Assembly: GCA_963745025.1 (NCBI GenBank)
Contig: CAVUWD010000016.1
Coordinates: forward strand, 96,001 to 160,000
Length of the DNA: 64,000 nt
Reading direction: 5' to 3'
Source: an uncultured delta proteobacterium
GTDB taxonomy: Bacteria > Desulfobacterota > Binatia > JACPRU01
The notes beneath the pieces are model-generated. The model was given only the letters and a program-made list of their open reading frames with translations. It had not been told where the DNA came from and did not search any database. Made by a program: the position numbers and the translations under genes. This document shows, in pieces, positions 39,245-53,720 of this stretch (its first letter is position 1; each line of letters begins with the position of its first letter).

Positions 39245-40081
39245 ATGACCATCGAATTCAGCGACGTGAAATTGGACTACATCACAATCGCCGAGGCACG
39301 CCGGATGTCAGGCCTGCGTATCGTGCTGGGCGCATATCCGATCCCGGGGCCGTGGCGTGAATCGTGTAAAGGCGTCTTTTACGTGAAGAGCCTCAAATAC
39401 GTGCCGGTGCGCACCGGGAACGAGGGCTCGTCCGATCTCGCGCTCGGCATGGGCGGCACGCAGACGGAACTGATCGAGTGGACCGGACAGGCTAGCGCCC
39501 CGGTCGTCGCCTGGAACGACGAACGACCGCGCGGGAGCTGGATCGATCAGTTGAACCTCGCCGAGCGCCTGGCCCCGAATCCGCCCTTGATTCCAGTGGA
39601 CGTCGACGAGCGTGCCCGGATGTTCGGTCTCGCCAACGAACTGCTAGGCGAGAATGGGATGGTCTGGGTCAAGCGCCTGCTGATGGTAGACGGTCCGCTC
39701 AAGTCCCTGTCCGCCGACGACCCGCAGCGCGGTTTCTGGATCTTTCTCGGCGAAAAGTACGGGTACAGCCGGGCGGCGGCCGGACGGGCCGCGCAACGCA
39801 TCGAGGCCATCGTGACTGCGTTTGCGAGTCAACTGACCTCCCAGCATGAGCGCGGCAGACGCTATCTCATCGGCGACCGCCTCTCTGCCCTCGATGTCTA
39901 CTGGGCCGCCTGCTGCGGCATCCTCGATCCCATGCCGCGCGAGCGATGTCCGATGGCCGACGCCTTCCGTGGAACCTACGGCAACACCGATCCGCGCATC
40001 GACAAGGCGTTGACACGGGAGCTGCGTGGGCATCGGGATTTCATCTACGACGACCACCTCGAAATGCCGATCGTGTTCTGA
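39245..40081 (+). CDS. Glutathione S-transferase-like protein
   Basis: PGPWRESCKG, GQASAPV, YLIGDRLSALDVYWA. Confidence 0.75.
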   Translation: MTIEFSDVKLDYITIAEARRMSGLRIVLGAYPIPGPWRESCKGVFYVKSLKYVPVRTGNEGSSDLALGMGGTQTELIEWTGQASAPVVAWNDERPRGSWIDQLNLAERLAPNPPLIPVDVDERARMFGLANELLGENGMVWVKRLLMVDGPLKSLSADDPQRGFWIFLGEKYGYSRAAAGRAAQRIEAIVTAFASQLTSQHERGRRYLIGDRLSALDVYWAACCGILDPMPRERCPMADAFRGTYGNTDPRIDKALTRELRGHRDFIYDDHLEMPIVF

Positions 40082-40244
40082 ATTCCCCCTCGGCGCGTGT
40101 CCACGCTCTTACGCCCGAACGTCAGCACCGCTTGGCGGTCTGGCGGCTCCTCTTCTGTCTCTACCTTGCGTGCCACGACCTTGCCGCGGGTGTTTTGCCT
40201 GGCCTGGGCTTTGTGGGCTATATCGAACCGGCGCGTCCAAAGCC

Positions 40245-40547
40245 TTACTTTGCGAGCCGGGGATCGTCGCTAGCGATGCACTGCGCTTCGATGAAGTCGA
40301 TCCAAAGCAACTTCTCAAGCTCCCGCTCGCCTCCTGCGGGATGGAATTTCTGTTCTTTACCCTCGCGTTGGCCCCGCGCCTTTGCCTGTTGGCATGAGTC
40401 AGCGCGATCGAAGGCTCCGGTAACCGTCCATTGGTTCAACGGTGCTTCAATATCTACGTACGACCTCCCGCCAGGCGCTTCGCGGATGGGAGCTAGCATT
40501 AAGTACCACCCGAGCAGAGCGAGTGCGGCGGCGTGAGGGGACTTCAT
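40245..40547 (-). CDS. Small exported hypothetical protein with two Cys
   Basis: HAAALALLGWYLMLAP..APLNQW..FD..C..CIASDDPRL. Confidence 0.65.
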   Translation of the reverse strand: MKSPHAAALALLGWYLMLAPIREAPGGRSYVDIEAPLNQWTVTGAFDRADSCQQAKARGQREGKEQKFHPAGGERELEKLLWIDFIEAQCIASDDPRLAK

Positions 40548-41179
40548 GTCTTCCAGTACATTCTTCGTCGCACGGCCACTCGCTGGCGGCTGATCTTCGC
40601 CCGTCCGTCGCCTTAAAGCCACCAACGCGGACCTTCGGCCGCAACCAAGGCGGCGGCGCCCGGGAGTGCCTGCATGACGCACCGCGAAAGTTCTTTGCAA
40701 GCCGCAAAGAATCTATACCATGAGGCGTACCACGAAGATGCTCGTATTTCAGGGCTCTCGTTGTCGCGAGAGAAGTTCGACCGCGTCATCGCGGCTGGTG
40801 AACGTGCCGCTACTTGTGCACTGGAGCGCGTCCCGGCGAGTTTGAAGGCTGCCACCACGCTGCGCGCCCGGATTTCGCGGCCAATTGGCAGCTCCGGGTC
40901 CAGGTGATACTCCTATTTCCAGAGTGAGGTGACCATGGGAACAAGAGTTCGTCTGTGGGGATCGATCGCGATGCTCTCGCTCGTCGCGCCGGTGACCGCC
41001 AGATCGCAGGCGCTCGCCCGCCCCAAGGGGGTACCGCAAAACGACCGTTGGGTGAGCTCATGCTCGCCCCGCTCTTTGCTGGGAGCGAATTTGGATTGCA
41101 TGCCGCTCAAGGTATGGCGATCCTCGTCATGGTTGCGGCACTGTGGGCCGCCGGTGGGCGAGCGGCATCGGAGCGGGAC

Positions 41180-41797
41180 ATGACACTTAAATTGCTCTTC
41201 TGGGGATTATTGGCGCTCGCAATTCCGGCGGAAATTTTCGCGGCGCCCTCGTACGACGGAAACTCCGGCGCGTTAAAAAACGCAGTTATTCTCATCATCC
41301 GGCACGCCGAAGAACCGGATGATGGCTATGGGTTGTCCCCAGTGGGCGACGCTCGCGCTCAGGCTTACGTTAATTATTTCAAGAATTTCACGGTTGACGG
41401 ACAGCCGTTGAAACTGGACTACCTGTTCGCCGCCAAGGATTCCCCCAACAGTCATCGCCCGCGCCTCACCATCGAACCGCTCGCCAAGGCACTCGGTCTC
41501 ACGGTTGACACCCGGTTCGATAACAAACAATTTCTGAAATTGGTCGATGAAATTCAGAGCCGGCCACACGGTACCAACATCTTGATCTGCTGGCATCACG
41601 GGACAATTCCCCAGCTACTGAGCGCGCTGGGTGCTGATCCCAAAAAACTCCTTCCCGACGGCAAATGGCCGGACGATGTGTTCGGCTGGCTGATTCAGTT
41701 GCGCTACGACGAGAACGGTCGTTTGTTTGAAAGTAAACGCATCAACGAAAATTTGTCATCTGATGATTCGGCCAAACATGTCCGGGCTGCGGCTTGA
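41180..41797 (+). CDS. Exported histidine-phosphatase-superfamily protein
   Basis: Signal peptide; IIRHAEEP, SHRPRLT, ICWHHG; lower GC than flanks. Confidence 0.75.
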   Translation: MTLKLLFWGLLALAIPAEIFAAPSYDGNSGALKNAVILIIRHAEEPDDGYGLSPVGDARAQAYVNYFKNFTVDGQPLKLDYLFAAKDSPNSHRPRLTIEPLAKALGLTVDTRFDNKQFLKLVDEIQSRPHGTNILICWHHGTIPQLLSALGADPKKLLPDGKWPDDVFGWLIQLRYDENGRLFESKRINENLSSDDSAKHVRAAA

Positions 41798-41938
41798 TAA
41801 ACGCTTGTTGGCCGGCGATGGAGAAATAGACGCATTCTCAATTTTTCAGACACTCTGACTCCGGAACACGCAATTTCCTCTAGATGCGGAGAGGTGATAG
41901 GGCGAATCCCAACCAGTTCGGAAAAGACGGAGGAGATC

Positions 41939-42778
41939 ATGTCATCGCATCTGTCTCGCACGGGCCGCCATGGCGGAAGAGCGTTTGGCATCATCATCAC
42001 TTTCGCCATCACCGCGCTCGCGTACGTGTTGCCGCCGGCAGCGTTCGGCGCCAACCCCGTAGAAGAAATGGCCAAGCAAAAATTCTCCATTGGCGGCGGT
42101 ATAGACCCGCAGGGCGATTCGTGGCTCGCCATGCAGAACAGCTTCGAGCAGTTCCTGCATCCGGAGTTCGTTCTGCGACTCCTTCTTAGTTTAACGTTGG
42201 CGGTGGGTTGTGCGTGGGTGTTCGCGTGGCATCCGCGCCACTCGTCGCGCCTCGATTCGCTTTCCGACCTCGAGGAGCGCAACACGCTCGTCCTCCTTGG
42301 CATGGTCGGGGCGATCGTCGCGGAATTGAGCGGGACCAGCCAAACGCTCGCGTTTGTCATCTTCGGGATCGGAGCACTGCTGCGTTTCCGCACCGTGCTC
42401 GACAATCCGAAGCTCACCGGAAAAGCCATCACGGTCGTGGTGATCGGGCTCGCGTGCGGCATGGGGTCATGGGTGATGGCGATCTTCGTCACCGCTTTCA
42501 GCTGGATCCTCATCTTTTGGCTGGATTCACACATCGCCTGCCGGGTCCGGATCCGGCTCGCCGAGGACGTGGATCCGGAGGCGGTTTTTGGCAGGGTGCA
42601 ATCGTTGCTAGGCTCGCGCGGTTGTCGGCTGCAAAGTTCCGCGCTCTACAAAGACAAACGACGGTTGGTGTTCCTTCTGCACATTCCAGCGGGACTCGAC
42701 CTAGAACAATTGAAGTTGGATGTACGCGCGAATCTGCCGGAGGCCGATGACGCCCGGATTAATATTGATTTGGAGTGA
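41939..42778 (+). CDS. DUF4956/MgtC-like membrane protein
   Basis: AFVIFGIGALLRFRT, IGLACGMG, C-terminal ACT-like domain. Confidence 0.7.
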   Translation: MSSHLSRTGRHGGRAFGIIITFAITALAYVLPPAAFGANPVEEMAKQKFSIGGGIDPQGDSWLAMQNSFEQFLHPEFVLRLLLSLTLAVGCAWVFAWHPRHSSRLDSLSDLEERNTLVLLGMVGAIVAELSGTSQTLAFVIFGIGALLRFRTVLDNPKLTGKAITVVVIGLACGMGSWVMAIFVTAFSWILIFWLDSHIACRVRIRLAEDVDPEAVFGRVQSLLGSRGCRLQSSALYKDKRRLVFLLHIPAGLDLEQLKLDVRANLPEADDARINIDLE

Positions 42779-42978: not shown

Positions 42979-43521
42979 ATGGACATCACGGCGCGCGATC
43001 TGCAATACGTCACCTCTCTGGAGGAAATCTGGTGGGGCGGAACGCTTGTTGCGCTCACCCTGGCCATGCACGGCTTCGGCATGATCTGGACGATGCACGC
43101 GACCAACGCGCTGAAACACCGGTTCGCGCGCAACCAGTCCTTCGCCCTCGGCATGGGCGTCATCATTCTCGCGAGCTGGATGATCATCCTCGTCCATCTC
43201 CTCGAGGTGGTACTGTGGGCCGGATTTTTCCTTTGGCGGGGTGCGATGCCCAACGGCAGCCTTTCCTACTACTTCGCATTGATGGACTACACAACGCTGG
43301 GCAGCAACTTCAACCTGCCGTTGCGCTGGCGCCTGCTCGAGGGCATGATCGCCATCGCCGGGCTGATGACGTTCGCCTGGTCCACCGGCGTGTTGCTGAC
43401 GCTGGCGCAGGAGTTCCAGGATCAGCAGCTGAAACGCCTCAAAGAGCGGCTGGGAAGACATTCGTCTAAATCGGGCTCGCCGCCGCCGCACCGGCCGGGG
43501 GACACGGAACACAGCGTCTGA
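42979..43521 (+). CDS. Small two-TM ion-channel-family (Ion_trans_2-like) protein
   Basis: HLLEVVLWA, YYFALMDYTTLGS, LLEGMIAIAGLMTFAWSTG. Confidence 0.75.
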   Translation: MDITARDLQYVTSLEEIWWGGTLVALTLAMHGFGMIWTMHATNALKHRFARNQSFALGMGVIILASWMIILVHLLEVVLWAGFFLWRGAMPNGSLSYYFALMDYTTLGSNFNLPLRWRLLEGMIAIAGLMTFAWSTGVLLTLAQEFQDQQLKRLKERLGRHSSKSGSPPPHRPGDTEHSV

Positions 43522-43825
43522 TATCGAGGCGTTAAGTAGCTTTCGGACCCTCGTAGGTGGTGGAGAACTAGCGGGGCGAGCTTCTCCTCGGGGTTGGGCC
43601 GATGGACCTCAACACCCGGCAAGCCGCTTGGGCAGCTCGGCGACTCTCGTGTCGCGCGAAGACGACGTCGTCGGAGCTATCGCTCTCGCGGTCGATCGTG
43701 GCACGCATCGAGTCGATCGATTCGGGCTCGACGATCGCCCGTAAGACCGCCGCGGGCTAGGGGATCCGCTTCTCGACGGTCCTCGCCACCGGTGTTCCCG
43801 TAGCGGAGGACCAATCGGCTCGGTT

Positions 43826-43846
43826 ACCCCGGCGTTCCGCCGGGGT
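43826..43846 (-). terminator. Hairpin immediately after the stop of the second AhpD-like gene
   Basis: ACCCCGGCG-ttc-CGCCGGGGT perfect 9-bp stem; weak U-tract. Confidence 0.45.
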
Positions 43847-44415
43847 CAGATCGAAGCGGCCTTCTGTGGGATCCTGCACGACGCCCCGATCGCGTCGACT
43901 CCTAGCGCGTAGACGAGCCGACCGTAGCCGATGAAGACGCTCGTACGCCAGCCGAGCTCGACGATCTGCTCCTCGGTGTAGTGAACACGCAGCTCGGCGA
44001 AGATCTCGTCGAACGGCGCTCGCTTGTGCTCGCCTGCCATCGCATCGGCGAGCTGCATCGCCGCCTTCTCAGCCGGGGTGAAGAGCGGACTTTCGCGAAA
44101 GTTCGGAACGGCGTCCACCATCTCGTCGGTCAAACCTTGATGCCTCGCCGAGGCATACACGGCACCCCTTCAAAGGGTGCACGCGTTGTGCACCGCCACG
44201 GTGTGGCGGACGAGCTCGGTCAGCTTCACGCTGAGGCCGTTCCCGTCGGTCATGATGCGCGAGTAGTAGAACTTCACGAAGTCCTCGTAGAGCGCGGCCG
44301 GGTGACAGAAGTACTGGATCCACTCCGAGCCACCGAGCGCATCGTCGCTCGCCTGAACGATCGCCTGGATCTCGGGCTCCATCTTCTCGTAGGGGACCGG
44401 TGCGACTCTCGGCAT
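43846..44415 (-). CDS. AhpD/CMD-like selenoprotein 2 (189 aa, CxxU, Sec82 at UGA 44170-44172)
   Basis: ORFs 44170-44475 and 43846-44160 are in frame across one TGA: HNACTL-U-RGAVYASARHQGLTDE; GGGAGG RBS; SECIS-like hairpin. Confidence 0.88.
44128..44169 (-). promoter_or_regulatory. Bacterial SECIS-like element, gene 2
   Basis: UGA-13 nt-AUGCCUC-GGC-GAGGCAU-CAAGG. Confidence 0.8.
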
Positions 44416-44438
44416 TGCGACCTCCCTGGTGACGGAAG

Positions 44439-45005
44439 CTATTTCGCTCGATCGGCCGGCGTGGGCAGCGGGCACGTCTTACCGATCTCGAGACCGAGCG
44501 TGTAGATGAAACGTCCGTAGCCGACGAACGTCACGATTCGCCAGCCGAGGTCGACGATTTCGGCTTCCGTGAAGTGCTCGCGCAGCTCGTCGAAGAGCTC
44601 GGGGCCAGCTTGTCGATGGTCTCCCGCGAGCACCTCGGCGTAGCGTACCGCCGCCTTCTCGCGCGGGGTGAGGAGCTTGCTCGCGCGGTACCGCGGGAGC
44701 TCGGCGATCATCTCCTCGGTGAGGCCTTGTCGCGCTGCCAGCGCGAACCGGGCACCCTTTCAAAGCTGGCAGCCGTTGATCTCCGCGACTTTCAGACGCA
44801 CGAGCTCGGTGAGCTTCATGTCGACCGTGCCGCGCGTCTCCGTGATGAGCGGGAAGTAGAAGCGGATGAAGGACTTGAACACCTCGGGCGCATGGGCGAA
44901 TACGCGCACGAACTCCGACCCGCCGAGCTCGTCGTCATAGTCGCGCATGACCGCCTGAAGCTCGGAATCGACGGCGTCGAAGGGCAAGTAACTGACGTGC
45001 GGCAT
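44439..45005 (-). CDS. AhpD/CMD-like selenoprotein 1 (188 aa, CxxU, Sec82 at UGA 44760-44762)
   Basis: ORFs 44760-45044 and 44439-44711 are in frame across one TGA: INGCQL-U-KGARFALAARQGLTEE; ELVRLKVA, REKAAVRYAE and ELREHFTEAEIVDL are typical of the AhpD-like fold. Confidence 0.88.
44718..44759 (-). promoter_or_regulatory. Bacterial SECIS-like element, gene 1
   Basis: UGA-13 nt-UCGCGCU-GGC-AGCGCGA-CAAGG, with outer GGUG/CACC pairing. Confidence 0.8.
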
Positions 45006-45229
45006 GCGGATCCCTCTCTTGCGGCGAGACTTATCACCCGTCACCGATGGTCACAATCTCTTGTGAGGTCCGTGCGTATGGAATCATTACACCCCCGGAC
45101 CCGACGAGATCTCGCTCGCCTACAGCGAATCAAGGGAGCAACGCTTCGAACTCAGCGATCACTTCCTATCGGCCGATGGGTTCTCACCCTGGCAGCGGAC
45201 GTGCTAGGTCTGTGGCCGGGAGTCGAACA

Positions 45230-46213
45230 ATGCCAGAGCGTCAACTACGGATTCTCGAAGAGGGACAGGGGCAGTACCTGCCGGTCGACCCGGACGGCTT
45301 CCGCGATGCCACGGGGAAGAAGAGCCGCGCGCTCGTCTCGAAGCTCGTCAGCGCGCGCGAAGCGGTCGAGCGTTACGTCGCCGACGGCGACTACGTCGTG
45401 TGGGAGTGCAATTACCTCCAGCGCGGCCCGTCGGTGCTGATCCGCGAGATCGTCCGGCAGCGAAAGCGCCGGCTCTGGGCATGCGGCAAGTTCACCTGGG
45501 TGGCGATCGCGCTTCTCGTCGAGGCAGACTGCTGCGACCGCGCCGACATGGGCTTTTTCATGGGCGGCCCCGGGCTCAACCGAGCGGTGCTCGATGGCCG
45601 GCTCACCATCTACGAGTACAGCAACGTGGTGATGACCGCGCGGCTGCGCGCCGGCGCCATGGGCGCTACGTTCGTGCCGGTGCGCTCGCTCGGCGGCACC
45701 GACAACTTCCGCTACTCGGGCGCGAAGCTCATCGAGGATCCGTACACCGGCAAGCCCACCGTCGTGGTGCCAGCGCTGAACCCCGACGTCGCGCTGATCC
45801 ACGTCCACCAGGCCGACGTCTACGGCAACGCGCGGATCTTCGGTGCCGGCATCACCGACGTCGAGTCCGCGCTGGCGTCGAAGAAGGTCGTTCTCAGCGC
45901 CGAGGAGATCATCGACACCGAGGACATCCGCCACAACCCGGGCCTCACCAAGATCCCCTACTACGTCGTCGACGCCGTGGTGCATGCGCCGTTCGGCGCG
46001 TATCCGGGCGAGACCCCGGGTCGCTACGCCTCGGACACCGAGCACGTGGGCGAGGTCTTCCTGTCGATGCACTCCGGCAAGCTTGGCGAGTATCTCGAGA
46101 AGTGGGTGCGCTCGGTCGCCGACGATCGCGAGATGCTCGAGAAGCGGGTCGGCACCGCCAAGCTCGAATCGCTGCAACGGCGCTCGACGCGCAAGGAGGG
46201 GTTTCGGCCATGA
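45230..46213 (+). CDS. Family I CoA-transferase subunit A (glutaconate CoA-transferase-like)
   Basis: RLRAGAMG..FVPVRSLGGTD, PALNPDVALIHVHQADVYGN. Confidence 0.88.
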   Translation: MPERQLRILEEGQGQYLPVDPDGFRDATGKKSRALVSKLVSAREAVERYVADGDYVVWECNYLQRGPSVLIREIVRQRKRRLWACGKFTWVAIALLVEADCCDRADMGFFMGGPGLNRAVLDGRLTIYEYSNVVMTARLRAGAMGATFVPVRSLGGTDNFRYSGAKLIEDPYTGKPTVVVPALNPDVALIHVHQADVYGNARIFGAGITDVESALASKKVVLSAEEIIDTEDIRHNPGLTKIPYYVVDAVVHAPFGAYPGETPGRYASDTEHVGEVFLSMHSGKLGEYLEKWVRSVADDREMLEKRVGTAKLESLQRRSTRKEGFRP

Positions 46214-47106
46214 TCTCACGCGGACCTTGGAACGACGCCCCGAAGGCGGCGGCGTTCGCCGAGCGGGAGTTTCAGGTGTGCATCGCAGCGCGGCTCGTCG
46301 AGGACGCGCGTACCTACTGGGTGGCCGCGGGCGGAGGGCCGATGTACACGGTGCTGCTCGCCCGCCAGCTGTACGCGCCGAACGCGATCTACGTGACCGA
46401 GGACGGCATCGTCGCCGCCGAGCCCGTGCTGCCGCTCGACCCGGTGATGACCGTGGTGGCCGAGCGGCCGTCCTTTCGGGCCCTGCAGTGGACGACGATG
46501 AACGGCATCGGCGACCAGTGCGCGACCGGCTACATGGATTACGGAATCCTCAACACGCTGCAGCTCGACCCCTACGGCAACATCAACTCGACATGGGTCG
46601 GCCGTTATCCGCAGCAGGGCAAGCGCATCAACGGCCCGGGCGGCGCCGACACGATCGCCGCGCAGTGCCGGCGCGTGATGCTGCTCACCGACCACCACAA
46701 GCGGAAGTTCGTCGAGAAGGTCGACTTCGTCTCGTCGCCCGGCTTCCTCGACGGCTCGCCGGGGGCCCGCGAGCGGGCCGGGCTGCCTCGCGACACGGGT
46801 CCGTGGGCGGTCGTCACGAACTGGGCGGTATTCGACTTCGACGAGAACACGCATCGGCTGCGCCTGCGCGCGATCGCCCCGTTCGTGACGCTGGACCAGG
46901 TGCTCGGCGAGATGTCGTTCACCCCGGTGCTCGCCGACGCGATCGAAACGCTCGACGCGCCGACGGAGCGCGAGCTCGACGTGTTCCGTGCCGAGATGGA
47001 CACGCGCGGCCAATTCACCGACGCCAGCGACCACTGGATCATCCGCGAGGAGGATCGCTGGACGATGGTCGCCAAGGAGAAGCCGGCGGGCACCGGGCTC
47101 CTCTAA
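46210..47106 (+). CDS. Family I CoA-transferase subunit B
   Basis: YVTEDG, QLDPYGNINST, GPGGA, FVEKVDFVSSPG; ATGA coupling. Confidence 0.88.
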   Translation: MISRGPWNDAPKAAAFAEREFQVCIAARLVEDARTYWVAAGGGPMYTVLLARQLYAPNAIYVTEDGIVAAEPVLPLDPVMTVVAERPSFRALQWTTMNGIGDQCATGYMDYGILNTLQLDPYGNINSTWVGRYPQQGKRINGPGGADTIAAQCRRVMLLTDHHKRKFVEKVDFVSSPGFLDGSPGARERAGLPRDTGPWAVVTNWAVFDFDENTHRLRLRAIAPFVTLDQVLGEMSFTPVLADAIETLDAPTERELDVFRAEMDTRGQFTDASDHWIIREEDRWTMVAKEKPAGTGLL

Positions 47107-48227: not shown

Positions 48228-48980
48228 ATGAGGTATTCACTGCCGGAATTCGTACTGGCTTCCGGGGTTCCGGTCGATACCGTCCGCTACTATCAGACCC
48301 TCGGTCTGCTGCATCCGCCGCAGCACGAGGGGCGCAGCGCCGTCTACGAGGCCGCTCATCTCGATCGACTGCGGCTGATCCGCTCGATGTCGAAGCGCGG
48401 CCTGTCGCTCAAGGTGATCGGTATGCTGCTCAAGCGCGGCGGCGCAGGGCTCGAATCGGACCAAGCGTTGCTCACGGCGATCGAGGAAGAGGCGGCCGAG
48501 CCCTCGTACTCGCGCGCCGAGCTCGCGGCCGAGATCGGCGTTCCCCAATCCCTGTTGCTGTCGATCGAGAAGGCCGGGTTGGCCGAAGCACAGGAGCAGG
48601 AAGATGGCTCCACGCGCTACACCGAGTCCGACCTCAAGGCAGCGCGTGGCGCGCTCAAGCTCCTCGGATACGGCTTCCCGCTCACGCGGCTCCTGACGCT
48701 GGCGGTGCGACATCACCGCGCAACCCGCCGCTCGGTCGACGAGGCGATCGAGCTCTTCGACGCGCACGTCCGCAAGCGCAACGGTGCGCACGAGAATCCG
48801 GAGGACGTCGCTCGCGGGTTCAAGGAAATTCTGCCGCTGGTGACCGCCCTCGTCGCCCACCACTTCCAACGCCTGCTGATCAACCGGGCGCTAAAGCGAC
48901 TGAGGAAGAAGGGCGACCGCGACGCCCTGCAGGTGGCCGTCGAGGTGTCGGCCCGCACGCGGCTTGGGCTTCGCTGGTGA
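48228..48980 (+). CDS. MerR-family transcriptional regulator with two HTH modules
   Basis: SGVPVDTVRYYQTLGLL..GLSLKVI; second YSRAELAAEIGV..RYTESDL. Confidence 0.88.
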   Translation: MRYSLPEFVLASGVPVDTVRYYQTLGLLHPPQHEGRSAVYEAAHLDRLRLIRSMSKRGLSLKVIGMLLKRGGAGLESDQALLTAIEEEAAEPSYSRAELAAEIGVPQSLLLSIEKAGLAEAQEQEDGSTRYTESDLKAARGALKLLGYGFPLTRLLTLAVRHHRATRRSVDEAIELFDAHVRKRNGAHENPEDVARGFKEILPLVTALVAHHFQRLLINRALKRLRKKGDRDALQVAVEVSARTRLGLRW

Positions 48981-49696
48981 GCGCCGTGCTTCCACGAGCG
49001 GACGAGAAGCAAGCCCGAGTCGAGGCGATGTTCGATCGCATCGCGCATCGCTACGACCTCATGAACCGTCTGATGACGCTCGGCATCGACCGGGCCTGGC
49101 GGCGGACCACGATTGCCGCACTGCAGATCTCTCCGCGCGATCGTCTGATCGATCTCGCGTGCGGCACCGGCGATCTGGCGCTCGAGGGTGCGCGCGCGGG
49201 GGCGCGAGTGATCGGCTTCGACCTGTCGGCAGGCATGCTGCGCGAGGCGCGCGAACGCCGCATCGCCTGTGTGCTGGTACGGGGCGACGCGCTTTGTTTG
49301 CCGCTCGCCGATGCCTGCTGCGACGCCGTAGTCTCGGGCTTCGCGCTGCGGAACTTCGCGGATGTGGCCGTCGCGTTCGCGGAGGCCGCACGCGTCCTGA
49401 AGCCGGACGGGCGGTTGGCGCTCCTCGAGGTCGACACGCCGGGGAGCCGGCTCCTTCGCTGCGGTCATCGGCTCTACTTCCACCACGTCGTTCCGCTCCT
49501 CGGCCGGCTTCTCTCCGACGGCGACGCCTACTCCTACCTGCCGGCCTCGGTGGCGTACTTGCCGGCAGAGCGGGCCCTCCGCGAGATGCTCCAAGCCGCG
49601 GGCTTTCGGTCGATCGAGAAACGTCGGCTGTCGGGCGGCGTGGCCCAGCTCGTGACGGCTCGACGCAGCCGAGAGCGAGAGGACGACGGTGCGTGA
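48977..49696 (+). CDS. menG: Demethylmenaquinone methyltransferase
   Basis: MFDRIAHRYDLMNRLMTLGIDRAWRR, DLACGTGDL, GFALRN. Confidence 0.9.
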   Translation: MSAVLPRADEKQARVEAMFDRIAHRYDLMNRLMTLGIDRAWRRTTIAALQISPRDRLIDLACGTGDLALEGARAGARVIGFDLSAGMLREARERRIACVLVRGDALCLPLADACCDAVVSGFALRNFADVAVAFAEAARVLKPDGRLALLEVDTPGSRLLRCGHRLYFHHVVPLLGRLLSDGDAYSYLPASVAYLPAERALREMLQAAGFRSIEKRRLSGGVAQLVTARRSREREDDGA

Positions 49697-51008
49697 TCGG
49701 CTCCACAGCGCGCAGGAGCGCTCGAAGCTCCGGCCCGCGGAACTCCTGGCACTCGCCGGTGCGACTCCCGAAACGCCGATCTTCCATTTGGAAAAGCCGG
49801 TCGAAGGGCTCGCGCTGCTCGCGCTCGGCGCCGCTTGGGAAATCCGCACGTCGGGCGTGGAGCGATTCGGCGAGGCGTCGCGGGCGGCGATCGAAGCGCT
49901 CGCGCGGCTGCCGCGATCGACCGATCCGCGTTTCGGCCCGCTCGTGCTCGGCGGCTTCGGGTTCTCGGACGCGGATTGTCTCGAGCCGGGATGGCGTGAG
50001 TTCCCGTCCGCCCGGCTGTGGATCCCGGAGCTTCTCTGGGTTCGGCGCGGTGGCGAATGTCGACTGACGCGGATCTGGCGAGACGGAGCGCAGCGTGACA
50101 TCGAGCGGCGCTTGTACAGGGCGACCCAAGCGGCGTCTGGCGCGGCTGCGCACGGTGTGCGATCGGCGACGCGCGTTCGCCCCGATCCGGACGAGCGGCG
50201 TCGCTGGGGCGAGCGGGTCGAAGCCGCCTGCGCGCGGATCGCCGCGGGCGGGCTGGACAAGGTGGTGCTCGCCCGCCGCCGCGTGATGCATCTCGACCCG
50301 GCCGCGGAGCCCGTGGCGATCCTCCGCGCGGCGCGCCGCCGCCGCCCATCGTGCTTCAACTTCTGGATCGGCGGACGGGAGACGAGCTTCGTCGGATCGA
50401 GCCCCGAGCGGCTCGTCGCACTCGACGGCGACCGCTTCGTCGCGGGCGCGCTCGCCGGCTCGGCGCCGCGGGGGCGCCGTGTTGGCGAGGACGAGCGGCT
50501 GGGCGAAGCGCTGCTCGCCTGCCCGAAGAATCGCCGCGAGCACGAGCTGGTGGTCACCGCGGTGCGCGAATCCCTCGCCCCGGTCAGCGCCTCGTTGCGA
50601 GTCGGCGAGCACCCGACGTTGCGACGCCTCCCCGAAGCGCAGCACCTCACGACGCCGATCACCGGCCGGCTCGCGGAGCGCCTCACGGTCCTCGACCTCG
50701 CGGGGCTTCTTCATCCCACGCCCGCCGTGTGCGGCGTACCGCGCGACACCGCCCGTCGCCTGATCGAGCAGCAAGAACCGGGACGGGGATGGTTCACCGG
50801 CGCGGTCGGTTGGATGGCGGAAAATGGCGCGGGTGAGATCGCCGTCGCGCTCCGCTCGGTTCTCATCGATGGCGCTGCGGCCACCGTTTGGGCGGGTGCC
50901 GGAATCGTCAGTGGATCGAGCGCCGAAGCCGAGTTCTCCGAGACCGAGGCCAAGATGAGCGCTCTCTTCGAGACGCTCGCTGCCACCGCCGATGAGTACG
51001 CTGCGTAA
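49689..51008 (+). CDS. menF: Isochorismate synthase
   Basis: KVVLAR, FVGSSPERL, ALAGSAPRG, KNRREHELV, LHPTPAVCG. Confidence 0.9.
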   Translation: MRDRLHSAQERSKLRPAELLALAGATPETPIFHLEKPVEGLALLALGAAWEIRTSGVERFGEASRAAIEALARLPRSTDPRFGPLVLGGFGFSDADCLEPGWREFPSARLWIPELLWVRRGGECRLTRIWRDGAQRDIERRLYRATQAASGAAAHGVRSATRVRPDPDERRRWGERVEAACARIAAGGLDKVVLARRRVMHLDPAAEPVAILRAARRRRPSCFNFWIGGRETSFVGSSPERLVALDGDRFVAGALAGSAPRGRRVGEDERLGEALLACPKNRREHELVVTAVRESLAPVSASLRVGEHPTLRRLPEAQHLTTPITGRLAERLTVLDLAGLLHPTPAVCGVPRDTARRLIEQQEPGRGWFTGAVGWMAENGAGEIAVALRSVLIDGAAATVWAGAGIVSGSSAEAEFSETEAKMSALFETLAATADEYAA

Positions 51009-52764
51009 CCCGAACCGCCGCATGGGGCAGGCGATCGCCGAGGAGCTCGAGCGCTCGGGGGTCGTCAGCGCCTGCATCTCCCCGGGTTCGCGATCCACCC
51101 CGCTGGCGCTCGCCCTCGACGCCGCTCCCGGTATCCGAGTGTTCGTCGTGACCGACGAGCGATCGAGCGGCTTCTTTGCTCTCGGGCTCGCCCGCGAGGA
51201 GCGCCGACCGGTGGCGCTGCTCTGCACGTCGGGGACGGCGGCGGCGAACTATCTCCCGGCGATCGTCGAAGCGTCGCTCGCCCGGGTCCCGCTGATCGTG
51301 CTCACCGCCGATCGGCCGCCGGAGCTTCGCGACTGCGGCGCGCCGCAGACGATCGCTCAGGCGAGCCTGTTCGCCGGACACGTGCGCTGGAGCTTCGACG
51401 TGCCGGCTCCGACCGCGGGCGTCGATCTGGATCGTCTCTACCGCACGCTGGCGTGCCGCGCGGTCGCGGCGGCGCTGGAGTGGCCGGGCGGTCCCGTCCA
51501 TCTCAACCTGCCGATGCGCGAGCCGCTCCTCGACGTGGAAGAGGAAGTCACGATCGTCGCCGTGGAGCGGGGCGCCGCGGAGGCTCGACCGTTCACGACC
51601 GTGCACGCGGCGCGTGCGGTGACCGCGCCGCAGACGCTCGAGCGGTTGGCGCGGACGCTCGAGGAACGAGAGCGCGGGCTGATCGTCGGCGGCCCCGGCA
51701 CCGACGCTGCGGCGGCCGGTGAGATCGCGCTCCTCGCGCGGGCTCTCCGCTGGCCGATTCTCGCGGACCCGCTCTCGGGGCTGCGCTTCGGCTCGCACGA
51801 TCGCTCCGCGCTCGCCGATAGCTACGACGTCTTGCTGCGCGACCGCGAGTTCGCCGCAGCGCACGCTCCGGACGCGATCCTGCAGATCGGCTCGCTTCCC
51901 GCCTCCAAGCCGCTCGCGCAATTCCTCGGGGAGGCGCCCCGCAGCTGCCATGTGATGGTGGCGGCGCCCGGCAGCTGGCCCGATCCGCTTCACCGCGCGA
52001 CCGACGTCGTGCGCGCCGCTCCGCAGGAGCTCTGTGCGGCGCTCGCCGCGCGGCTCCCGGCGCGGCCGTCGACCTCTCCCTGGCTCGACGATTGGCTCGA
52101 GAGCTCCGTGGCGTTGAGAGCCGCGCTCGACGACGAGGTCGCGGCCGTCGACGAGGTGCTCGAGGGAAAGCTCTTCCCGCTGCTTTGCGACCGCCTGCCG
52201 GGGGAAAGCCTCGTGGTGTTGGGCAACAGCATGCCCGTGCGTGACGCCGACACCTTTCTCGGCTCGAGCGATCGCGCGCTTCGCTTTTGCGGCAATCGCG
52301 GCGCGAGCGGCATCGACGGCGTGACGTCCAGCGCGCTCGGGGCGGCGGCGGCGCGACGCGAGCCGACCGTCCTCGTGGTCGGCGACCTGAGCTTCCTCCA
52401 CGACCTCGGCGCGCTGCAGATCGCCGCGCGCTATGCGGTCCCGCTCCTCATCGTCGCGGTTCACAACGACGGCGGGGGCATCTTTTCGTTCTTGCCGCAG
52501 GCTCGGCTCGACGGTCCCTTCGAGGCGCTCTTCGGGACCCCGCACGGGCTCGAGCTGGAGCCCGCGGTCCGCATGTGCGGAGGACGTCACGTGCGGGTCG
52601 CCTCATGGCGGGGATTCGCGGCCGCGATCGACGCGGCGCTCGGCGAGCGCGAACTCTCCGTGGTCGAGCTCGCGAGTGACCGTGCGCGGAACCACACGCT
52701 CCGCGAACGGACGATCGCGGCGGCGCTCGCGCGCTGGCGGCGTCGCCGGGAGTACGCGGCGTGA
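50992..52764 (+). CDS. menD: SEPHCHC synthase
   Basis: SPGSRSTPL, DERSSGFFALGLA, CTSGTAAAN, NRGASGIDG, GDLSFLHD. Confidence 0.95.
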   Translation: MSTLRNPNRRMGQAIAEELERSGVVSACISPGSRSTPLALALDAAPGIRVFVVTDERSSGFFALGLAREERRPVALLCTSGTAAANYLPAIVEASLARVPLIVLTADRPPELRDCGAPQTIAQASLFAGHVRWSFDVPAPTAGVDLDRLYRTLACRAVAAALEWPGGPVHLNLPMREPLLDVEEEVTIVAVERGAAEARPFTTVHAARAVTAPQTLERLARTLEERERGLIVGGPGTDAAAAGEIALLARALRWPILADPLSGLRFGSHDRSALADSYDVLLRDREFAAAHAPDAILQIGSLPASKPLAQFLGEAPRSCHVMVAAPGSWPDPLHRATDVVRAAPQELCAALAARLPARPSTSPWLDDWLESSVALRAALDDEVAAVDEVLEGKLFPLLCDRLPGESLVVLGNSMPVRDADTFLGSSDRALRFCGNRGASGIDGVTSSALGAAAARREPTVLVVGDLSFLHDLGALQIAARYAVPLLIVAVHNDGGGIFSFLPQARLDGPFEALFGTPHGLELEPAVRMCGGRHVRVASWRGFAAAIDAALGERELSVVELASDRARNHTLRERTIAAALARWRRRREYAA

Positions 52765-53720
52765 TCCGGCGGCTTCAGGTTCGCGGCCGCACCGTCGAAC
52801 TCGCCGACGAAGGGGCGAGCGGCGCTCCTGCCGTCGTCCTTCTCCACGGCTTCACCGGCAGCAAGAACAGCTGGCGGACGCTCCGCCGGGAGTTGCGGGG
52901 ACGATACCACGTGGTGGCGATCGACCTTCCCGGGCATGGCGGCACGCCGGCCGCGCGCGATCGGCACGCCGACTCGCTCTGGCGCGCCGCCGATCTCGTC
53001 GTCCGAGCGCTTCAGGCAATCGCGGTCGAGCGGTTCTCGCTGGTCGGTTACTCGATGGGCGGACGGCTCGCGCTCGGGCTTGCGCTCGCGCATCCGCAGC
53101 GCGTCGAGCGCCTTCTCCTGGAGAGCGCGTCCCCGGGTCTCGCGGGGGCGGAGGAGCGCGCCGTGCGGCGTGACGCCGACGAGGGGCTCGCCCGTCTGCT
53201 CGATCGCGAAGGCATCTCGAGCTTCGTCCGGTCCTGGGAGCGGATGCCGCTCTTCGCAACCTTCGCGCGGCTGCCCGATGCCGTTCGCACGGACCTTCGG
53301 CGCCAGCGGCTCGCCTGCTCGCCGCGTGGCCTCGCCGCGTGTTTACGCGCGCTCGGTACCGGGAGCCAGCCCTGGCTCGGCAACCGGCTGAGCGAGCTCT
53401 CGCTCCCGGTGACGATCGTGGTCGGCAGCCGCGACGATAAGTTCCGCGCGATCGGCGCCTGGATGCGGAGCCGACTGCTCGCCGCGCGGCTCGAGATTGT
53501 GCCCGCCGCAGGGCACGCGCCACACCTCGAACGCCCGCAGCGGTACGGCGCGATCGTCGCGCAGTTCCTGAGCGTGGGCGATTCGGCAAAGGAGGACAAT
53601 CGATGCGCTGGGAAACGGTTCGTGAGTACGAGGACATCACCTTTCGGCGTGCCGAAGGCATCGCTCGGATCGCGATCAACCGCCCGGAGGTGCGCAATGC
53701 CTTCCGGCCGCAGACGGTGA
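52761..53720 (+). CDS. menH: SHCHC synthase (alpha/beta hydrolase)
   Basis: [37 protein letters not shown]. Confidence 0.9.

Follow-up and report, generated by a model that had tools for sequence, protein, structure and literature searches.

Evidence for a linked pair of AhpD-like C-x-x-U selenoprotein genes in a Candidatus Binatia genome

We analysed a 64,000-nucleotide stretch of DNA (hereafter the window; positions 96,001 to 160,000 of contig CAVUWD010000016.1, assembly GCA_963745025.1) from an uncultured member of Candidatus Binatia. Two adjacent genes on its minus strand, here called A and B, almost certainly encode genuine selenocysteine (Sec) decoding proteins of the AhpD-like type, with the carboxymuconolactone decarboxylase (CMD) fold. 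Each gene carries an in-frame TGA at the place of the second Cys of the C-x-x-C redox motif, and each has been split in two by the open reading frame (ORF) caller. The initial annotation, made from the DNA letters without database searches, had already read the pair as C-x-x-U selenoproteins. It proposed looking for the Sec machinery in the genome, for Cys or TGA at the same position in homologues, and for a selenocysteine insertion sequence (SECIS) element downstream of each TGA. All of its checks that were run bear out this core reading.

Two genes, each with a UGA at codon 82

Gene A (45005..44439, minus strand) encodes 188 amino acids with the motif C79-Q-L-U82 when TGA is translated as U, and ends at a TAG stop (44441..44439). 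Gene B (44415..43846, minus strand) encodes 189 amino acids with the motif C79-T-L-U82, has Val86 and Cys180, and ends at a TGA stop (43848..43846). Translation in this manner confirmed the proposal that four short ORFs combine into two paralogous genes: under translation table 11, gene A is represented by ORFs 44760..45044 and 44439..44711, and gene B by ORFs 44170..44475 and 43846..44160. There is exactly one internal TGA per gene, at codon 82 in both cases (44762..44760 in A, context GCQL-U-KGAR; 44172..44170 in B, context ACTL-U-RGAV; both minus strand). The two proteins are 46% identical over 186 residues. Both keep a C-terminal Cys, as the initial annotation had pointed out, within the motifs IGKTCPLP (Cys178 of A, codon at 44472..44474, minus strand, located on the C-terminal tail) and IGASCRIP (Cys180 of B).

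The genes are separated by a spacer of 23 nucleotides (nt) on the minus strand (44416..44438), in which a Shine-Dalgarno-like GGGAGG is positioned 5 nt before the ATG of B. The sequence AGAGGGA is found at the same distance before the ATG of A. The short gap and the Shine-Dalgarno-like sequence before B make co-transcription of the two genes plausible. A simple scan of 43500..45400 for promoters and terminators returned no sites of either kind, and hence neither supports nor opposes a single transcript for A and B.

Selenocysteine machinery and SECIS-type hairpins

The genome contains the machinery for Sec insertion. Profile searches of the window's own assembly (5.65 Mb, 20 contigs, 92.65% complete) identified selA (571 bits), selB (397 bits) and selD (385 bits), all above the curated cut-offs and located side by side on one strand (contig C20:20417-25012; loci L001, L002 and L009). 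The selD gene itself contains one in-frame TGA, in the context G-U-A-A-K. A tRNA-Sec, again above the cut-off, was found on contig C15 (76.5 bits), and is called by ARAGORN as tRNA-SeC with the anticodon tca.

Both UGA codons are followed by a hairpin of the SECIS type. In gene A, RNA folding and covariation define the core UCGCGCU-GGC-AGCGCGA (44730..44746, minus strand), which a lower stem extends to about 44721..44757. The core in gene B, AUGCCUC-GGC-GAGGCAU (44140..44156, minus strand), occupies the same register and has the same loop. In both genes a 7-bp upper stem is capped by a GGC loop beginning 20 nt 3' of the UGA; the UGA-to-loop window given in the bSECISearch paper is reportedly 16-37 nt. 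Five of the seven stem pairs differ between A and B on both sides yet still pair, despite the changes in encoded amino acids. Bacterial SECIS elements are described as having a small apical loop with a G just after the UGA (PMC1088965), and such a stem-loop directly 3' of the UGA is present in A as well as in B. A GGC triloop is also seen after the UGA of selD (loop from 17 nt) and after that of a third CMD paralogue of the same genome (19 nt).

Covariation was assessed on an alignment of 34 of the 46 TGA-bearing sequences, leaving out eight near-duplicates (L051, L052, L053, L056, L058, L062, L063 and L069) and four distant sequences with the hairpin in another register (L084, L089, L091 and L096). 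In this set, 95.8% of stem cells are paired, compared to 38-59% after the 3' partner columns are shifted by one to three positions. Compensatory changes occur in five of the seven pairs, with 38 cells changed on both sides, and none of 500 shuffles gave a covariation score as high as that observed. The number of pairs changed on both sides is a less extreme measure, with the observed value reached in 33 of 500 shuffles, and the eight further pair types fell below the shuffle mean. Inspection of the same place in 22 Cys homologues revealed no such hairpin sequence.

A different hairpin is found directly 3' of the stop TGA of B (window 43827..43845, minus strand). It consists of a perfect 8-bp G+C-rich stem, CCCCGGCG-GAA-CGCCGGGG, with no U tract behind it, and could serve to end or stabilise the transcript. 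Its location is too near the stop TGA for it to resemble the codon-82 hairpins.

Homologues carry Sec or Cys at position 82

A contig search of the genome collection with A yielded 66 loci, two of which were too weak to score. TGA is present at the aligned codon in all 37 loci that are at least 60% identical to A, while the 27 scored distant loci have TGC in 22 cases and TGA in five. Position 82 of A aligns with the second Cys of the C-x-x-C motif in the Cys homologues, and the protein database has nine full-length entries of 61-69% identity with C-R-L-C at this site. Every B-type locus covering the site likewise has TGA. The recurrence of TGA at this codon goes beyond chance; the initial annotation had already considered two independent nonsense mutations there implausible.

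The region downstream of the UGA is under selection as protein. Eleven comparisons with close orthologues were made over codons 83-180, and in 10 of them most differences are synonymous; against locus L034, for instance, A shows 31 synonymous and 8 non-synonymous differences, and B shows 26 and 7. The exception is A compared to L105 (95% identical), with five differences of each kind. Contigs derived from the reads of four public sequencing runs, which by their nature cannot show strand, transcript ends or co-transcription, provide a further view of the site; in no public sequencing run were at least half of the sampled sequence words present. One run gave an independent DNA contig of a 97%-similar strain, which covers 43800..45046 and shows 35 differences, neither TGA being affected.

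Four public metagenome proteins (P0012-P0015) have Trp at position 82 in their database sequences (C-F-L-W). Since they are nested among TGA-bearing loci (L061, L066) in the tree described below, this Trp probably stands for a TGA that the gene caller read under table 4.

Two further positions are strongly conserved. The third Cys (Cys178 in A, Cys180 in B) is present in all 55 rows of the A-Sec, B, A-Cys, 'W' and P0118 groups, and is missing from 12 distant Cys homologues. Arg86 is found in 63 of 68 rows, and all five B rows have Val at this position. The replacement of a near-invariant Arg by Val makes it probable that B has another substrate or partner than A.

Family, fold and proposed mechanism

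The Pfam CMD domain (PF02627, cut-off 23) matches A with 49.4 bits (residues 40-124) and B with 43.1 bits (residues 50-124), the match spanning the TGA. The scores against curated NCBIfam models are all below the respective cut-offs: NF053654, YciW-related (seleno)protein (A 71.1 and B 62.3 bits, cut-off 310); TIGR01926, peroxidase-related enzyme (44.1 and 31.6 bits, cut-off 81.8); NF041047, GSU3128 family (21.1 and 18.4 bits, cut-off 110); and TIGR00778, AhpD core domain (25.3 bits for A, cut-off 27.8, with no match for B). Though related to these families, A and B belong to none of the models.

The AlphaFold model is all-helical, with a predicted local distance difference test (pLDDT) value of 86.3, and residues 79-82 are placed at the start of helix 80-92. 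It therefore displays both hallmarks of the AhpD structural family, an all-helical fold and a redox motif at a helix start. Foldseek matched the model with a probability of 1.00 to PA0269, 2prr, 2oyo, 6k40 and 6e8l; template modelling (TM) scores for the best of the structural matches (PA0269, 2prr, 6k40 and 2oyo) range from 0.63 to 0.87, and the matches include AhpD entries from D. radiodurans and S. pneumoniae. The canonical AhpD motif C-x-x-C-x-x-x-H is incomplete in both proteins: Glu67, Cys79 and Sec82 are kept, the Tyr site is Leu81, and the His site is Arg86 in A and Val86 in B.

We propose that A and B are intact, translated genes for AhpD-like (CMD-fold) thiol/selenol oxidoreductases of Candidatus Binatia. 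SelB with Sec-tRNA(Sec) would bind the in-gene hairpin, leading to decoding of UGA-82 as Sec; the TGA ending B would terminate translation, as no hairpin is found in that register. The Cys79-x-x-Sec82 redox centre would be located at the helix start, where the Sec82 selenolate could attack an oxidised substrate, which by analogy with AhpD and PA0269 may be a peroxide or an oxidised peroxiredoxin-type partner. Cys79 would resolve the resulting adduct to give an intramolecular Se-S bond. A thiol donor would then re-reduce the Se-S bond, and it is possible that Cys178/180 on the flexible C-terminal tail joins this step. The assignment to peroxide/peroxiredoxin chemistry, made by analogy, is one that we favour with moderate confidence.

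Distribution, origin and linkage of A and B

A-type genes with TGA were found at 65-90% identity in six of 40 relatives searched (G001, G003, G004, G005, G006 and G013), and a further relative (G002) has an A-type fragment at a contig end. Taken over all orthologues of A, which without exception have TGA, identity ranges from 65 to 91%. B-type genes are much rarer, with five loci in four genomes of the species-representative collection. Of 15 B-type metagenome loci returned, 13 were usable, and all have Sec where the site is covered. The B-type orthologues are 77-98% identical. A second B-type copy in one relative (L104:3001-3551) is present as three pieces in different frames, which reflects either a decaying copy or long-read assembly indels.

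A quick maximum-likelihood tree was built from 68 rows, leaving out duplicates and rows with fewer than 150 aligned residues; its root is uncertain. The B clade (five rows, support 100) lies on a long branch and is sister to the A clade (48 rows, support 86), inside which a Cys clade (nine rows, support 98) is nested. Given this topology, the simplest reading is that the pair probably goes back to a single ancestor that already carried Sec and was duplicated hairpin included, not to two nonsense events. On this weakly rooted tree, B is an old paralogue and the pair does not stem from a recent duplication.

A adjoins B in 11 of the 19 loci holding B. Six of these have the tandem arrangement with A upstream (the window, L100, L105, L106, L107 and L111), and five are head-to-head (L101, L108, L110, L114 and L117). 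No A was seen at the other eight B loci, although three of them (L103, L112 and L115) have little or no flank upstream of B. L105 and L106 share 95-98% identity with the window and possibly represent the same population, in which case they are not independent. Of the 37 A-type genome loci, 35 have no B within 4 kb, and A therefore does not need B. The linkage of A and B is real, and may be inherited from the duplication.

The same genome contains four further CMD-family C-x-x-U genes, each followed by a hairpin, with the motifs CSVU, CVFU, CPFU and CKYU. They are located at C16:576112-576525 (minus strand) and at C12:14871-15341, C19:220886-221215 and C5:33593-33967 (all plus strand). With A and B, the CMD-family C-x-x-U genes of this genome number six. 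One further CMD paralogue has C-x-x-C (C20:157435-157626).

Gene neighbourhood

The initial annotation drew attention to the position of the pair divergent from CoA-transferase genes. This arrangement is indeed present, with PF01144 domains in 45047..46213 and 46210..47106, divergently upstream of A, but the neighbourhood is not kept elsewhere. Six window neighbours (both CoA-transferase subunits, an SDR, a MerR regulator and two unknown ORFs) were compared by tblastn to the 66 related loci, and a CoA-transferase match was found at none of them. The same comparison gave one MerR match (L043) and otherwise merely generic SDR similarity; the loci without CoA-transferase beside the gene include that of the same-genus relative. 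A CoA-transferase link was hence rejected as a functional clue, with a match beside the gene in 0 of 66 related loci.

Further along the window, a region on the plus strand (48228..53720) begins with a gene for a MerR-family regulator, followed by overlapping genes for UbiE-type methyltransferase, MenF-like chorismate-binding, MenD-like ThDP and MenH-like alpha/beta hydrolase proteins. By its gene content it looks like a menaquinone biosynthesis cluster. In relatives, these genes do not adjoin the AhpD-like gene. Five ORFs have no Pfam match (E up to 0.001): 39946-40536 (plus), 40245-40700 (minus), 40955-41797 (plus), 41894-42778 (plus) and 42979-43521 (plus). The last two have a high third-position G+C content (0.74 and 0.85, respectively), and the product of 42979-43521 appears membrane-bound by eye.

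Alternative explanations

Several observations weigh against the proposed model. Shuffle z-scores for the single-sequence folds are weak (-1.3 and -1.7), and the case for the hairpin hence rests on covariation. An Rfam scan of 43600..45300 (E up to 10) returned nothing SECIS-like, the best matches (snoRNA, SAH riboswitch and miRNA models) being at chance level with E of at least 0.67. Two metatranscriptome libraries yielded short contigs of close relatives over parts of B only. One of these, a 151-nt contig, spans the UGA of B with no difference listed at the codon, and this support is weak because DNA carry-over is possible. Gene A has no cover in the RNA libraries, which carries no weight either way. 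In the structure model, the tail that bears Cys178 (residues 171-188) has low confidence (pLDDT 64 and 56), and the modelled placement of Cys178 relative to Sec82 is therefore uncertain. With regard to the chemistry, the positions of the PA0269 relay residues Tyr50 and His55 are occupied by Leu81 and Arg86 (Val in B). No ahpC or peroxiredoxin domain was detected in the 16 ORFs scanned between 37074 and 53720, five of which have no Pfam match. The 18 flanking ORFs of five related loci also contain no peroxiredoxin domain, and by Pfam their contexts are unrelated and differ by locus: DsbA/2-thiouracil desulfurase/MscS; glutaminase/Amt/P-II; TetR/SnoaL; SDR/amidohydrolase; and DHDPS.

The proteins could be AhpD-fold selenoproteins with another thiol/selenol chemistry, such as a Bmp8-like reductive dehalogenation or the reduction of some other small electrophile or disulfide. 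The model matches Bmp8 (TM score 0.76) about as well as it does the peroxidase-related entries, and the substituted relay residues, the lack of a peroxiredoxin gene nearby and scores below the cut-off of every curated NCBIfam peroxidase-related model all point in this direction. Set against this, identity to Bmp8 is just 17-18%, no halogenase or other pathway genes lie beside the pair, and the nearest solved relatives by sequence are of the PA0269 type (E 5e-14), for which weak H2O2 reduction is reported (PMC3141380). We consider a different chemistry unlikely, yet the most credible of the alternatives.

It is also conceivable, along the lines of the hetero-oligomer suggested by the initial annotation, that A and B operate as one unit, either as a hetero-oligomeric selenoenzyme or as a two-step redox relay with the Arg86-less B as the specialised partner. 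This would fit the adjacency of the genes in two arrangements, the presence of A in all five genomes with B, the Val86 of all B rows compared to the Arg seen in most of the alignment, and the multi-chain nature of solved family members (e.g. nine chains in 2ijc and 12 in 2prr). Co-occurrence says little, however, as A is found in most genomes of the group, and the adjacency is possibly a leftover of tandem duplication, with L105 and L106 perhaps not counting as independent cases. Furthermore, A functions without B, given the many A-type loci with no B nearby, and one relative has its two B copies on contigs other than that of A (L102, L104). A joint unit thus appears rather improbable. Slightly more doubtful still is a dedicated two-selenoprotein system, a hetero-oligomer or relay in which the Arg86-less B and Cys178/180 would pass reducing equivalents between the active sites. 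If it were true, Binatia would possess a self-contained selenium-based defence against peroxides or electrophiles that works without a peroxiredoxin partner, and the repeated A-B linkage in two orientations would be a trace of this coupling.

Returning to the decoding of A and B as selenoproteins, the two readings in which UGA-82 does not encode Sec are both very improbable. The TGAs could be true stops, the genes being pseudogenes or each encoding two separate half-proteins. There are indeed two table-11 ORFs per gene and many C-terminal fragments among the public protein matches (see below), and start codons are available after the TGA (GTG four codons on in B, ATG 17 codons on in A). In opposition to this, TGA is kept in all the close A loci and all B loci covering the site, purifying selection acts on both halves in one frame, including A codons 83-99 that precede any start codon, and the Pfam domain crosses a break located exactly at the catalytic Cys position. 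Together with the covarying hairpin and the complete Sec machinery, this makes true stops highly improbable. The weakest reading, a genome-wide reassignment of TGA to Trp or Gly, could draw on the Trp82 of P0012-P0015 and can be practically dismissed, as TGA ends seven of 10 Pfam-supported neighbour genes (none with an internal TGA) as well as B itself, where no hairpin in the codon-82 register follows, while the Trp82 proteins nest among TGA loci in keeping with table-4 calling and a Trp at the catalytic Cys position is not expected to work.

Significance

The main value of the pair lies in annotation. Most public protein entries of this subfamily are C-terminal pieces of ~104 amino acids (about 85 of the 120 matches listed), carrying the names 'hypothetical protein' or 'alkylhydroperoxidase family enzyme'; the initial annotation had anticipated such mis-annotation as fragments. 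As the curated NCBIfam models all stay below their cut-offs for these proteins, automatic pipelines will go on cutting such Binatia genes in two. The Binatia are a widespread but uncultured lineage of soil and sediment, and the six CMD C-x-x-U genes in the window's genome suggest that selenium-dependent redox defence is a substantial trait of these bacteria. The third Cys and the A/B difference at Arg86 offer a natural comparison for what Sec adds to this fold. AhpD/CMD selenoproteins with C-x-x-U have been known since 2005, and nothing found here changes the known workings of selenoproteins. What sets this case apart is that two old paralogues are linked, that B has lost Arg86, that a third Cys is conserved and that one genome has six such genes; these features are modest leads, not surprises.

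Comparison with known systems

The canonical AhpD of Mycobacterium tuberculosis is an adaptor that re-reduces AhpC, and shares with A and B an all-helical fold and a redox centre of the C-x-x-C type. Its second motif Cys is the attacking nucleophile, the position held by Sec in A and B. In mycobacteria the ahpD gene is located next to ahpC. A and B are without an adjacent ahpC and, unlike the mycobacterial protein, have no His four residues past the second redox residue.

Among solved structures, PA0269 of Pseudomonas aeruginosa (2ijc, 2o4d, 7xw1) ranks first by sequence (E 5e-14, residues 60-172) as well as by fold (TM score 0.84 normalised to the target). Its Glu36, Cys48 and Cys51 align with Glu67, Cys79 and Sec82. 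PA0269 has Cys in place of Sec, and its Tyr50 and His55 correspond to Leu81 and Arg86 in A (Val86 in B). At 145 amino acids it lacks the first ~59 residues of A, which are outside the alignment, as well as the Cys-bearing C-terminal tail. PA0269 is reported to catalyse weak thiol-dependent H2O2 reduction, with Glu, Cys, Tyr, Cys and His as residues of a proton relay, and to be ~9% identical to M. tuberculosis AhpD, in which the motif is located elsewhere in the chain (PMC3141380). The debrominase Bmp8 (6ohi/6ohj), a thiol-dependent dehalogenase with the CMD fold, has the same fold over its whole length (185 aligned columns). It differs from A and B in its low sequence identity, and A and B lack a pathway context for halogenated substrates.

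That AhpD-like selenoproteins are known already, as the initial annotation stated, is confirmed by the literature. C-x-x-U selenoproteins of the AhpD-like (COG2128) and CMD domain families were described from the Sargasso Sea in 2005 (Zhang, Fomenko and Gladyshev; PMC1088965). According to the Global Ocean Sampling (GOS) survey they are among the most abundant families, AhpD-like 1 and 2 being represented by 299 and 70 sequences (Zhang and Gladyshev 2008, PMC2398784), and several AhpD-type entries are listed in a 2026 review (PMC13188914). A literature search on selenoproteins of the Binatia/Binatota, which covered publications apart from their supplements, returned nothing on selenoproteins of this lineage. 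A and B resemble the Sargasso/GOS proteins (COG2128/YciW and TIGR01926 type) in the CMD/AhpD fold, in having Sec at the second position of C-x-x-C, in a hairpin that follows the UGA closely within the gene and has a small apical loop containing G, and in having widespread Cys homologues. Unlike these, A and B reach no curated NCBIfam cut-off, have a conserved third Cys on the C-terminal tail, and form a linked pair of old paralogues in the lineage Binatia.

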